Of a stretch of 64,000 bases of DNA, positions 44,330 through 48,596 are shown piece by piece. Position numbers and translations under genes: made by a program. This stretch comes from Escherichia phage kvi, in the sequence record MN850615.1. One strand, 5' to 3'. Under the pieces are notes generated by a model, which was not told the DNA's origin, made no database searches, and saw only the letters and a program-made list of their open reading frames with translations. Positions within the stretch are counted from its first letter, which is position 1. Each line of letters begins with the position of its first letter.

Positions 44330-44659
44330 TCAAATCAGTTTGAAATAGTTTTCGTTTACATTTTCTTCTGTGATTGCTGTCTTAAATTCTTGACCGTTAT
44401 CCGGTGTGATGAAATAACGGTCAGAATAATCACGAAAACGTTTTAAGTGAGATACCCCAACATTAACACCATGTTCCCAAAAACGAAAGGTAATCATTTT
44501 TGGTTCATATCGATAGTCGCTGGTTAACACAGTACCATCACCGCGACGGGCTTCATAAACCGTAATACATTCACGATTAGCGGCTTTAAGGCATTCTTCA
44601 ATAGTGCCGCACGAGATAATACTTACTTTTTCATCTACGATTTGTTCTACAGTCCACAT
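44330..44659 (-). CDS. Hypothetical protein
   Basis: 109 aa; downstream of promoter at 44691. Confidence 0.5.
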   Translation of the reverse strand: MWTVEQIVDEKVSIISCGTIEECLKAANRECITVYEARRGDGTVLTSDYRYEPKMITFRFWEHGVNVGVSHLKRFRDYSDRYFITPDNGQEFKTAITEENVNENYFKLI

Positions 44660-44690
44660 AATATAATCCTCTCTTTGTTTTGATGTTTGT

Positions 44691-44719
44691 ATTATACACT
44701 ATTGCGTTACGCTGTCAAC
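44691..44719 (-). promoter_or_regulatory. Early promoter (TTGACA-17-TATAAT)
   Basis: rc of TGTCAA..ATTATA. Confidence 0.6.
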
Positions 44720-45044
44720 CTTTTTGTTCCATGAAAAGCGGTGCTGTTTCTTCTTTCAGTTTAATAACTAGCGCGGAAACTTCATCAAGAAAATCTTTTT
44801 CCATATGAGCAAGCATTGATTTAGAATCTTTGATGACTTTCAAAGAATATTCACTTAGATTTCCTTTTCCTAACAATAATGCAGGATACACACTATGTGG
44901 GATCTCGATTTCATGATATTCGCTCATAGTATAATATTTGTGAATTTTTAAATCTATATTTCTTCGTTGTACGTCCACATCAGCAATGACATACAGAAGT
45001 TCGATTTTATCGCTTTTCTGGGAAAGGGTAGCATTCAAAAACAT
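44715..45044 (-). CDS. Hypothetical protein
   Basis: 109 aa; downstream of promoter at 45074. Confidence 0.5.
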   Translation of the reverse strand: MFLNATLSQKSDKIELLYVIADVDVQRRNIDLKIHKYYTMSEYHEIEIPHSVYPALLLGKGNLSEYSLKVIKDSKSMLAHMEKDFLDEVSALVIKLKEETAPLFMEQKG

Positions 45045-45073
45045 TGTTAATCCTCCTTTGTTTCGATGTGTGT

Positions 45074-45101
45074 ATTATACATTACCGCGCCAGCATGTCA
45101 A
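45074..45101 (-). promoter_or_regulatory. Early promoter (TTGACA-16-TATAAT)
   Basis: rc of TGTCAA..ATTATA. Confidence 0.55.
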
Positions 45102-45163
45102 TATATTTTTCATAAAAATTTAGGCAATAAAAAAGCCTCCCCGAAGGGAGGCTGTAAAATTCA

Positions 45164-46138
45164 TTACATCGCTAACAGAGAGTCCAGGTCATCCAGATCA
45201 GAAGCGGAGGAAGTACCGCCACCCAGGTCCAGAGATGCCATCAGGTCATCAGCGGAAGAATCTAACGCCGTGCTAGCTGCGTTAATACCAACTACAGTGC
45301 TAGCTGCGGTCATACCAGAATCGAATGCATTCATCTGTGCGTCAAAATCGTCAAGCTGGCTGTTAATCGCTGCCGCAGCACTGGAAGCCGCAGCACCAGC
45401 TACCATAGAAACGCCCATAGTTTTCTTAAATTTGGTTTCCAGTTCATCGAACGGTTTAAACTGGCTAGGCGCTACAATCTCACTCAGATCAACCATGTTT
45501 TCCATCAGATATTTCTGATATGCTTCGTCTTCAATTTTCGGAAGCTGTGATTGCTGCATGAAACGAGAATCATCATAGTTCTGGTGTTTATCAACCTTCT
45601 TAGCTTTCAGGAGGAAGTTAGCACCGGAGAACACACAAGTTACATCTACCGGAACTTCGCCCATATCGGTATTCACGTTCACCATCGCAACGATCTTATC
45701 ATAAATTTTCTGACCGAAGCGGAATTTGAATACCTTACCTTCATTTTCTGGCGCTTGAGGATCTTTCAGTACCAGAATATTTGCGTAGTAAGAGGCTTTA
45801 CGCTTAATCAGTTGCCATTCGGTTTTATCGGTATTGTACAGGTCTTTTTCGTTAATATATTTGCACACAGGGCAAGAATCAAAATCACCGTGGGTGCTGG
45901 AGCAGTTTTCCCAATACCATTTACCATTAACTTTGAAGGAATGGTTTACCAGTTTCACAATCGGCAGACCGTCTTCTGTCTTAGACGGCAGGAAGCGAAT
46001 CAGGGCTTCACCGTTACCTGCTGCATCAGTCTTAATCTTCCACTCTTTCGGATCTTCTTTGGAGAAACCGTTGCCACCTTTCAGTGCGGCCAGTTGAGCT
46101 TGCAGTTTGGAGCTATCTTGACGACGAAACATGTTCAT
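45164..46138 (-). CDS. 32: Single-stranded DNA-binding protein gp32
   Basis: 324 aa; [19 protein letters not shown] zinc site, acidic C-terminus. Confidence 0.95.
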
Positions 46139-46198
46139 AATTATACCTCTTTATACATTAACTATTGATTAATTTACGTTTTATACTATATCAGATAC

Positions 46199-46795
46199 TT
46201 AATTGCTTGTCAATACTTTATCAATTATATCTAACAGTTTTGGCTTTCTATTTTCAAATTCTAACATCTCTTCGGGAGAAATGTCAACTACTTCTGTTTT
46301 GTTGAAAAAGTTTGGGTCTATAGCATCAGCAACAAAGTTTCTCGCAAGTGCTGCCGCTTTCTCATGAACATATATTCCCAAATATATCAACTTCTTTCTT
46401 TCGACCTGAATATTGGCAACATATTTACCATCTCGTTTATAAAGACTAACACCGATATATTCAGACGATCGGCCTTTCTGTTTACCCATATTTCTTGAGT
46501 TTTGTTGCTCGTTCGCATCTCTCAAGTTTTCAATCCGATTATCTGTTATAATTCGGTTAACATGGTCAACGTATTTTGGCATGTATCCATGATGCATAAA
46601 GAAAATTATTCTATGCTCTTTATGATGTTTACCATCGATACACACCAATCTGTATCCATGACTAGGATTAACTCCACCCGCTCTAGATCCGACTTTATGC
46701 TTTCTGTTTGTCGATATCTTGCGAATCAGCTTACCGTTATCATATTTAAAGAGTTCATGACAACGAGCATACAATTCAGGATCATATGTTTTCAC
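46199..46795 (-). CDS. HNH homing endonuclease with AP2-like DNA-binding domain
   Basis: 198 aa, GTG start; HNH block (DHVNRIITDNRIENLR) and AP2-like (SEYIGVSLYKRDGKYVANIQ); inserted between 32 and 59. Confidence 0.7.
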   Translation of the reverse strand: MKTYDPELYARCHELFKYDNGKLIRKISTNRKHKVGSRAGGVNPSHGYRLVCIDGKHHKEHRIIFFMHHGYMPKYVDHVNRIITDNRIENLRDANEQQNSRNMGKQKGRSSEYIGVSLYKRDGKYVANIQVERKKLIYLGIYVHEKAAALARNFVADAIDPNFFNKTEVVDISPEEMLEFENRKPKLLDIIDKVLTSN

Positions 46796-47459
46796 CTTTT
46801 AACCTCGATATTTCTTTACACTCTTTAACTACTTTAACAAATAATGCTCTTGCTTTTGCGGCGTCAATAACAAGTAGTTTCTTGTACGCCTTCATTTTAA
46901 CACTATAAGTTTGCCAAATCAAGTCTTTGGCTACCTTGTCGTGTTCGTCGATTATATTTAGAAAGCTATCTAACAACATAAACGACTCAAACGATATAAT
47001 CCGATTTTGCAGTAGTTTAAAGATACCGCTAGTTTCGGTTGCGGGATTGTATGTAATTAGCTCTTTAAGAGTAACCCCGCGTTTCTCTGAGAAGTATACC
47101 AGACTTTTAATGTCATCGTCAAATCGTGTTGCCGCATCAGTGATTTTACCGATGTACTCCATGTAAAACCCGTATGCGTCAACATCGGTGATTTCACCTA
47201 CCCATGCATCGGTATTAGATACCAGATTGCTTAGGAATAGGAAGTATAATTCTCTTAGATTGTACTTTTCCGCTAATTTTGCGAAATAATACTTATCTCT
47301 GCGTTTATTGAATGCGGCATCAGATAACCGCATCCTCCAATTATATTTTACGCAATCATAACGCCCGTTCATATGAGCTTTCATCATGCAATATAACATA
47401 TACACAGATTTAGCATTAATTCGCATATCTGGTTCTGGAGGAAGACGGTTTCTGATCAT
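46782..47459 (-). CDS. 59: Helicase loader gp59
   Basis: 225 aa; KYNWRMRLSDAAFNKRRDKYYF, IISFESFMLLDSFLNIID match T4 gp59. Confidence 0.9.
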   Translation of the reverse strand: MIRNRLPPEPDMRINAKSVYMLYCMMKAHMNGRYDCVKYNWRMRLSDAAFNKRRDKYYFAKLAEKYNLRELYFLFLSNLVSNTDAWVGEITDVDAYGFYMEYIGKITDAATRFDDDIKSLVYFSEKRGVTLKELITYNPATETSGIFKLLQNRIISFESFMLLDSFLNIIDEHDKVAKDLIWQTYSVKMKAYKKLLVIDAAKARALFVKVVKECKEISRLKGENI

Positions 47460-47468
47460 ACATACCCC

Positions 47469-47738
47469 TTAAATATCGAGAGTGTTGGTCGGTTCGTCGA
47501 TCACTCCCTTCCTGAGTGTTCTATTTACTATACATTCTTGTGTGATCTTGTCAATAATGGACACCGGAATATACTTCTGATAGTGACCATATTCGATAGA
47601 GTTTTCCTCTACAAACTGCGTTGTCGCTTCAAGATAAGTCAATCCCTCTTCAACAACCAGTTTTTCGATTGCAAGACCGTTTGCTGTTTTATTCGCGGCT
47701 TTTACCGCATGTTCATTAAGCATTGAACACCCGATCAT
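47469..47738 (-). CDS. 33: Late transcription accessory protein gp33
   Basis: 89 aa (ATG at 47738 or 47723); LTYLEATTQFVEENSI matches T4 gp33. Confidence 0.75.
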   Translation of the reverse strand: MIGCSMLNEHAVKAANKTANGLAIEKLVVEEGLTYLEATTQFVEENSIEYGHYQKYIPVSIIDKITQECIVNRTLRKGVIDEPTNTLDI

Positions 47739-47991
47739 AGAGTTCTACCGCTTCGTCGCGTTCTGCTTCGAAGGTTTCGCGCTGTTGCTGGTGATACAGT
47801 TTAAACAGAATGCCCCACATTTTACCATCTACGCCTAATTCTTCTTTAGCACGCTGTTTGATCTCTTTGATCTTATCGCCATATGCTTCTTGAATGGTTT
47901 TCTGATCGCTGGCTTCTTTAATCAGTTGCGCCAGGGTATTTCCGTGTACATTTTCATCGAATACTACTTTTTCTTTTTTCTGTTCAGTCAT
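47716..47991 (-). CDS. dsbA: DsbA-like dsDNA-binding protein
   Basis: 91 aa; position between 33 and rnh. Confidence 0.7.
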   Translation of the reverse strand: MTEQKKEKVVFDENVHGNTLAQLIKEASDQKTIQEAYGDKIKEIKQRAKEELGVDGKMWGILFKLYHQQQRETFEAERDEAVELYDRVFNA

Positions 47992-47996
47992 AATAT

Positions 47997-48596
47997 TTAA
48001 CCCTCTTTCGTCATTAATTGAAAACCACGTTCAGCTTTTGAAATTTCGCTAGGACTTAAATCGTCACCAACATATTCTAGCATCATTTCTCGGATAATGT
48101 CAAGTGCTTTTTCATCACCTGATTTTAACTCGAACTCAAGTTCATAATGAGCAGTGTTTCCCAATCCTTCGCCTACTTTGCCATAATAGAAAGTGTCTTT
48201 GCACATTTCCACTATACCACAACCCATATCTAGAGTCAATGACTTGCGATATGTCATTACTTGCATTATTGCAGTGATATAGTCGGAGTTTACCCCTAGA
48301 CTATCAATAAAATGGACGAACTCATCCCAATTTGAAAATGTCATTTCCTCGCGGTTGAATAGTCCAGATTCATTATCACCCATTTTGACCATGATCTCTG
48401 ATTTTCTACAGTCAAGTCGTGCATAAATTCCTTTTTGACGTAGCGCATGATCTTCGGTATCATAATAAAATTCGTGTTTTAATATGTTATCTCGGTCTAA
48501 GAGATTGTACCCGTCATACATTGCCACCCACAAATCACAGATGGTTTCGACGCCAATTTGTGAGTGTGCATAGTATTTTAATTCAAGTTCTTTCAT
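47997..48596 (-). CDS. CYTH (triphosphate tunnel metalloenzyme)-like protein
   Basis: 199 aa; N-terminal ELELK (ExExK), YYDTED, C-terminal HYELEFELK. Confidence 0.5.
   Translation of the reverse strand: MKELELKYYAHSQIGVETICDLWVAMYDGYNLLDRDNILKHEFYYDTEDHALRQKGIYARLDCRKSEIMVKMGDNESGLFNREEMTFSNWDEFVHFIDSLGVNSDYITAIMQVMTYRKSLTLDMGCGIVEMCKDTFYYGKVGEGLGNTAHYELEFELKSGDEKALDIIREMMLEYVGDDLSPSEISKAERGFQLMTKEG

Follow-up and report, generated by a model that had tools for sequence, protein, structure and literature searches.

A described counterpart of this locus by position is segG (gene 32.1) of phage T4, a free-standing GIY-YIG homing endonuclease gene which occupies the slot between genes 59 and 32 (NC_000866, 147909-148541; L017, 4910-5542). 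Experiments have shown that SegG cleaves gene 32 of T2 and homes, and its gene is a promoter-less cassette which is read from upstream promoters and carries the gene 32 promoters within its coding region (PMC2988022). Most free-standing endonuclease genes of T4 are promoter-less cassettes, and embedded host promoters disfavour their deletion (PMC2988022). In the T-even phages, the span from gp32 to gp59 was found to be dimorphic, with 1364 nt in T2, Sfk20, and others and about 1945-1950 nt in T4, RB9, and KMB39, where segG is annotated.

I-HmuI of Bacillus phage SPO1 (PDB 1U3E), an intron-encoded enzyme of the HNH kind, is a nicking enzyme. The HNH-AP2 class of phage homing endonuclease genes reportedly goes back to Magnani et al. 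2004. AP2-HNH homing endonuclease genes were recognised in RB49 and RB43 (PMC1524935). In Table 5 of PMC2993671, HNH-AP2 genes are given only for RB49/JSE, RB43/RB16, and KP15, and for none of T4, T2, T6, and the other T-even-type genomes. The HNN-AP2 boxes of the Xanthomonas phage endonucleases (Xp10/Xop411 group I) are HR(I/L)…, DH, DNR, NLR(D/E), and (Q/E)N, without Cys dyads (PMC2248197). As for the Krischvirus phages, ORF240 of Makalu_002 was described as an HNH-type homing endonuclease which is absent from Makalu_001 and Phi1 (PMC11611945).

The window, which is the whole stretch of 64,000 nt analysed here, is from a Krischvirus (RB49-like) coliphage genome. As summarised in Table 1, an ORF for a protein of 198 aa is placed between gene 59 and gene 32. 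Upstream beyond gene 59 lie gp33, dsbA, a CYTH-domain ORF, and rnh (ORF list and Pfam), and the gene neighbourhood is a T4-type replication cluster. The first start codon of the frame is a GTG, with a GAGG Shine-Dalgarno sequence 7 nt upstream, and the next in-frame Met is residue 67. The ORF shares 14 nt with the end of gene 59, including the gp59 stop codon (46782..46795). It is separate from its neighbours and outside any intron, and is thus free-standing; no group I intron or other Rfam family was found around it in 44500-48000. No paralogue was detected within the 64-kb window, and the composition is uninformative on a foreign origin (35% GC versus 37% for gene 59). The 2.6-kb region around the ORF has best matches of 97-98.5% identity. 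Two side observations were made in the neighbourhood. The sole Rfam match in 44500-48000 was the sRNA STnc100 (45123-45191, minus strand; 22.8 bits versus a gathering score of 47; E = 0.045), which overlaps the gene 32 terminator hairpin (45134-45153); this sub-threshold match is probably due to chance. The CYTH-domain (triphosphatase-like) ORF between dsbA and rnh (47997-48596, minus strand) is annotated as two ORFs in G2494 (L005, 4497-4889 and 4892-5092), which suggests a disruption there.

The gene is already known. An identical protein has been deposited as an HNH homing endonuclease in several Krischvirus genomes, among which the gene is variable according to PMC11611945. The orthologues Makalu002_240 (QGS83845.1), ELT4_131, SKERS_102, and G2494_00246 are at the same site and encode the same 198-aa protein, with no substantive difference, and these four copies are annotated in GenBank as HNH or homing endonucleases. 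The protein is identical at 198 of 198 residues in G2494, ELT4, Skers, pEJ01, and Cognac, while Makalu_002 has two differences. Since the identical protein occurs in these five other phage genomes and the dN/dS ratio (see below) is 0.14, the ORF is not a chance reading frame.

Table 1. Positions of the endonuclease gene, its parts, and adjoining elements in the window.
Feature	Position	Strand	Remarks
Endonuclease ORF	46199..46795	minus	198 aa; GTG start; TAA stop; from the ORF list
Gene 59 (helicase loader)	46782..47459	minus	Pfam T4_Gp59_N, 1.7e-40; T4_Gp59_C, 6.5e-29
Gene 32 (ssDNA-binding protein), downstream neighbour	45164..46138	minus	Pfam gp32, 1e-51
Insert-only segment	46221..46789	minus	569 alignment columns, missing from all empty-site relatives
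Endonuclease translation initiation region, inside the last gene 59 codons	46793..46806	minus	GAGG 46803..46806; GTG 46793..46795
N-terminal beta-hairpins, residues 1-60	46616..46795	minus	Model secondary structure; precede the nuclease core
HNH (H-N-N) beta-beta-alpha-metal core, residues 61-102	46490..46615	minus	
Catalytic residues	D77 46565..46567; H78 46562..46564; N90 46526..46528; N99 46499..46501	minus	
AP2-type DNA-binding domain, residues 112-156	46328..46462	minus	Three-stranded sheet and helix
C-terminal helix, residues 174-197	46205..46276	minus	Model; block-mean pLDDT 91-97
Gene 32 early promoter, TTGACA-17-TATAGT	46185..46213	minus	Consensus scan 11/12; homologous to the RB49-annotated early promoter
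Second sigma-70-like site, TTGACA-18-TAGAAT	46258..46287	minus	Consensus match only; conserved in the E26 allele
Late-promoter-like TCTAAATA, in gene 59	46955..46962	minus	"Late RB49 promoter" in NC_005066

The domain composition of the protein was assessed with single sequences and with a family profile. Pfam HNH_3 matched residues 61-101 above its gathering score (E = 2.2e-11; 43.6 bits versus a cut-off of 24.8), and PHROG 99, "HNH endonuclease", was matched at E = 1.5e-50. The single-sequence match to Pfam AP2 (residues 112-153; E = 7.4e-5) was below the gathering score (23.4 versus 33.3 bits), and PF00847 is precomputed in several homologues including the E26-type allele P0002. A single-sequence phmmer search of PDB gave only a weak AP2 match and missed I-HmuI, and a profile of 42 sequences was needed. 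For this profile (alignment A2), 50 homologues were collected and 41 of them were aligned together with the window protein. The A2 profile matched I-HmuI in PDB (1U3E; E = 1.1e-7; alignment starting at profile position 40, within the N-terminal hairpin region) as well as the plant AP2/ERF proteins WRI1 (1.5e-8), TEM1 (3.6e-5), ERF096, and AtERF1. In the profile alignment, D77, H78, N90, and N99 are paired with D74, H75, N87, and N96 of I-HmuI. R62, D77, H78, N86, R87, E89, N90, R92, and N102 are invariant in A2, and N99 is conserved in at least 90% of the sequences. The HNH core has the beta-beta-alpha-metal fold, and the AP2 segment, a three-stranded sheet with a helix packed against it, is homologous to AP2 domains of solved structure. 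Thus, the HNH_3, I-HmuI, and AP2/ERF matches indicate that an H-N-N type His-Me finger nuclease is joined to an AP2 domain in one protein. The C-terminal helix of residues 174-197 was found only in the lineage of the window ORF and is missing from the wider family in A2. Its DNA overlaps both of the promoter-like sites near the end of the gene.

The initial annotation had reported a free-standing ORF of 198 aa between genes 32 and 59 which overlaps the gp59 stop by 14 nt and encodes an HNH block and an AP2-like segment, and had pointed to loss of the HNH catalytic residues as evidence against a homing endonuclease. The position and the overlap agree with the ORF list and Pfam, and no intron or RNA family surrounds the ORF. 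Pfam HNH_3, PHROG 99, and the I-HmuI alignment bear out the HNH block. The AP2-like segment is backed by the AP2/ERF matches of the profile, though the single-sequence Pfam match is below the gathering score. No loss of the catalytic residues was seen, as D77, H78, and N90 are invariant and N99 is nearly so.

Comparison with the described systems places the protein as follows. It has the same two domains and the same boxes as the HNN-AP2 class (RB49ORF040c and Xp10/Xop411 group I), again without Cys dyads, but differs from that class in the extra C-terminal helix (about residues 174-197). With I-HmuI, it shares the H-N-N His-Me finger core following beta-hairpins. In contrast to the window protein, however, I-HmuI is encoded in an intron and has a helical C-terminal DNA-binding part rather than an AP2 domain, and the two sequences are about 19% identical. 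SegG shares the slot of the window gene, but it is a GIY-YIG and not an HNH enzyme and has no AP2 domain, and its activity is experimental while that of the window protein is predicted from sequence. No GIY-YIG catalytic domain is present in the ORF, in which Pfam finds HNH_3 and AP2 only. Thus, the window gene is a positional analogue of segG and not its homologue. MobE of T4, between nrdA and nrdB, is likewise the product of a free-standing, promoter-less HNH gene situated between two conserved DNA-metabolism genes (PMC2988022). It differs in its insertion site and in the lack of an AP2 domain.

Is the gene common among the relatives? I compared 58 records which match gp32 to gp59 at E <= 1e-100. 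The endonuclease gene was found at exactly this site in 11 of them. Nine carry the window-type allele (G2494, Cognac, Makalu_002, ELT4, Skers, MIZ4, MIZ5, pEJ01, and FL20), and E26 and 011D4 carry a diverged allele. The initial annotation had proposed a comparison with relatives lacking the insert, and such relatives do exist: the gene is absent from 47 of the 58 Krischvirus records, including RB49, Phi1, JSE, GEC-3S, and the 88%-identical ECD7/Brandy/G2248/JK32 group. All of the 47 insert-free records have the same short span, and no other occupant of the 59-32 slot was found in Krischvirus. As the ECD7 group, at 88% identity, also has an empty site here, the ancestral state is the empty one, and the ORF was inserted. 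Neighbour-joining trees built for the two flanks (16 genomes, without bootstrap support) show carriers and non-carriers interleaved. Makalu_002 (carrier) pairs with Makalu_001 (non-carrier) and pEJ01 (carrier) with KFS-EC (non-carrier), and G2494 (carrier) groups with ELT3 and G5211 (non-carriers). The gene is not fixed in any clade of these trees.

Beyond this site, relatives of the protein were found by tblastn in 2498 phage records, where they are widely annotated as HNH or homing endonucleases. Close copies are confined to the 11 carriers, and the rest are less than 60% identical, lie in other contexts, and belong mostly to non-T4-like phages. Family members outside the 59-32 slot are at most about 45% identical among the phage-genome matches listed, and the nearest one beyond the slot in the protein database is at most 49% identical. 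The earlier description of the domain pair as typical of T-even phages was therefore imprecise, given these mostly non-T4-like matches and Table 5 of PMC2993671.

The insertion could be delimited precisely by a MAFFT alignment of the junction in 16 genomes (nine carriers and seven non-carriers). In the carriers, the insert takes the place of some 7 nt (CAAATAG) which, in the RB49-type junction, lie between GAAA and TTGACAAG. The empty site reads …GAAATATCTCAATTAAAAG(C/T)CGAAA-CAAATAG-TTGACAAGTAAATTT…, while the carriers read …GAAATATCGAGGTTAAAAGGTGAAA-[569 nt]-TTGACAAG…, and the RB49-type empty junction contains …AAAGCCGAAACAAATAGTTGACAAGTAAATT…. All carriers share one and the same junction, and all aligned non-carriers have a conserved empty site. 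The right boundary was set by E26 and 011D4, since they have the RB49-type intergenic sequence from TTGACAAG onward. In the empty-site genomes, the gp59 stop codon TGA overlaps with the -35 element (TTGACA) of the early gene 32 promoter annotated in RB49.

Within 1.2 kb on either side, there are eight fixed differences between carriers and non-carriers. Two of these are columns at the alignment edge of the right junction, and the remaining six fall within 46794-46806. By the substitution of TCAA to GAGG a Shine-Dalgarno sequence is gained, and by that of (C/T)C to GT the GTG start codon is gained. Through these six substitutions, the C-terminus of gp59 is changed from SQLK(A/V/S)ETNS* in the non-carriers to SRLKGENI* in the carriers. 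The gene 59-side flank is otherwise at least 99% identical in all genomes aligned, and no extended co-conversion tract was seen on that side in the 16-genome alignment. On the gene 32 side, the leader and N-terminus are of two types, RB49-type (MFKRQ…) and window-type (MNMFRRQ…), whose ribosome-binding regions differ (window positions 46100-46185). The window-type leader is present in all nine window-type carriers compared and the RB49-type leader in E26 and 011D4. The insert-free ELT3 (L012) is a recombinant which combines the RB49-type promoter with the window-type ribosome-binding region and start. Thus, the leader variant is not a clean signature of co-conversion, because it is also present in the insert-free ELT3.

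As for expression, the gene matches the T4 pattern of a promoter-less cassette with an embedded host promoter (PMC2988022). The early promoter of the essential gene 32 reaches with its -35 box into the last endonuclease codons, and a simple deletion of the endonuclease gene would be disfavoured for this reason. The second sigma-70-like site also falls inside the 3′ end of the gene. On the other side, the TCTAAATA element is located about 160 nt upstream of the endonuclease start, and its 60-nt context is identical between RB49 and the window. Since this element is conserved in gene 59, late transcripts toward gene 32 would carry the endonuclease ORF. No canonical T4 late promoter TATAAATA was found on the minus strand near the gene. 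A hairpin sequestering the ribosome-binding site, as in several T4 endonuclease genes, was also considered and rejected; the folding of 46740-46860 was no better than that of shuffled sequences (z = 0.13).

Two alleles of the gene were compared. Among nine genomes, the window-type insert shows an identity of at least 98.8%, and six of them encode an identical protein. The E26-type allele (E26, L009 2686-3279; 011D4, L010 2660-3253) is 83% identical to it in DNA and 84% in protein, and the comparison revealed a mosaic. There is near identity over nucleotides 1-120 and about 510-570 and 90-97% identity in the HNH core, while the hairpin of residues 41-58 and the AP2 region form divergent blocks of about 60-65% DNA identity. 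The C-terminus of the E26-type protein differs through a 1-nt indel. No frameshift or truncation was found in the nine copies compared, and the catalytic residues are kept in both alleles and in all nine copies. The dN/dS ratio between the two alleles is about 0.14. Together with the retained catalytic residues, this value indicates that the protein is maintained by purifying selection and is not a decaying remnant. The initial annotation had marked the ORF as a likely recent insertion. The ancestral empty site upholds the insertion, whereas the 17% divergence of the alleles in DNA argues against a recent date; as they share the same site, the association with the slot is not necessarily young.

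From these results, I consider with a probability of roughly 0.8 that the ORF is an intact, selectively maintained, free-standing I-HmuI-like HNH/AP2 homing endonuclease gene, whose product cleaves the empty 59-32 region so that the gene is copied in by repair. The initial annotation had named an HNH-AP2 homing endonuclease inserted between genes 32 and 59, and the domains, the intact residues, and the empty-site relatives agree with it. Both the nuclease activity and the homing of the 198-aa protein are predictions from sequence comparison. Lacking its own promoter, the gene would be transcribed as a part of the gene 59 transcript and also from that gene's internal late-type promoter. Translation would start from the GTG at a low level, coupled to the end of gene 59. 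In a mixed infection with a relative lacking the gene, the N-terminal hairpins and the AP2 domain would read the uninterrupted sequence of the gene 59 stop and the gene 32 promoter. A local target is suggested because only the junction differs consistently between carriers and non-carriers. The His-Me finger, with H78 as the general base and D77 and N99 as metal ligands, would then nick or cut there or nearby; like I-HmuI, it could plausibly nick a single strand. The recipient would acquire the gene through recombinational repair templated by the carrier genome. The carrier may be immune because the insertion splits the site and the six linked substitutions alter its left half. These six substitutions may, however, simply serve to create the Shine-Dalgarno sequence and the start codon rather than immunity.

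Might the gene have ceased to home? In that case, a former homing endonuclease gene would be kept passively for the gene 32 promoter and because precise deletion is rare, and its patchiness would reflect ordinary recombination between co-infecting Krischviruses. The position of the -35 box within the last endonuclease codons is in line with this reading, as are the presence of the gene in only 11 of the 58 genomes and the visibly mosaic flanks without a long co-conversion tract. However, the catalytic residues are intact in both alleles and all nine copies, none of which (0 of 9) has a frameshift or truncation, and the dN/dS of 0.14 points to purifying selection on the protein beyond the promoter-bearing 3′ end. 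The patchy distribution of the gene also argues against this reading, which I regard as improbable.

A domesticated regulator, whose AP2 domain controls the expression of gene 32 or gene 59, is very improbable. The AP2 fold is a genuine binder of specific DNA sequences and the gene is placed right on the promoter region of gene 32, but the nuclease active site is conserved, the dN/dS is low, most close relatives regulate gene 32 without the gene, and it is fixed in no clade. The GenBank label "Fis family transcriptional regulator" of the E26 and 011D4 copies would favour such a role; it is a misannotation without support from Pfam, which finds HNH_3 and AP2 only and no Fis or helix-turn-helix domain. 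Equally remote is a nuclease with another role, mainly a weapon of phage competition (marker exclusion), which would cut competitor genomes away from its own insertion site. T4 SegG in the same slot does promote marker exclusion (PMC2988022), and HNH-AP2 proteins are abundant and dispersed over many phage genomes. Such a role is compatible with homing and the two are not mutually exclusive, but the gene is always at one site, and the fixed differences between carriers and non-carriers are only at the junction, which fits a local target. Thus, an intact homing endonuclease gene remains the preferred reading.

Apart from the 59-32 junction, I found a second variable slot directly downstream of gene 32 (about 45045-45163 in the window, from the gene 32 terminator to the ORF 44715..45044). 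Gene 32 is thus flanked by two mobile-gene slots. The second slot contains ORFs of 485 aa in RB49, 405 aa in Cognac, and 392 aa in Skers and Makalu_001, in which Pfam finds a CapR-homology domain and a treble-clef zinc finger. These CapR-homology ORFs are annotated as "endonuclease" or "GIY-YIG nuclease". ELT4 has a 269-aa ORF without a Pfam match there, and pEJ01 has a 145-aa Rha/DUF559 protein. The positions of the ORFs in this slot are L011 43-1500, L003 591-1808, L007 321-1499, L006 687-1496, and L008 1069-1506. The second slot is empty in the window, G2494, and E26.

As a discovery, the gene carries little weight, since recognition of the HNH-AP2 class in RB49-type phages dates from 2004-2006. 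The mildly novel aspects are confined to the 59-32 slot, used convergently, and to the two alleles, which differ mainly in their DNA-binding modules. The locus is of modest value as a worked example of a precisely bounded insertion of a free-standing endonuclease gene with a clean empty site in relatives, in which the last codons of gene 59 supply the translation start and the 3′ end holds the promoter of gene 32. The slot of T4 SegG is here used by an unrelated nuclease in another genus. Since SegG occupies it in T4 and an HNH-AP2 gene occupies it in Krischvirus, the junction appears to have been colonised independently by two nuclease families. In both genera, the resident gene (the GIY-YIG segG in the T-evens, the HNH-AP2 gene in Krischvirus) would have taken over the promoters of gene 32. 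It is a tentative and rather doubtful idea that the 59-32 junction is a convergently colonised homing site at which the divergence of the two mosaic alleles reflects a shift in specificity or an exchange of modules in an arms race with the target at the gene 59 stop and gene 32 promoter. With two diverged alleles and plentiful natural substrates that have the empty site, the system would be easy to study by experiment. If the idea is true, the allele pair would allow the reading of DNA by HNH-AP2 enzymes to be dissected with natural variants.
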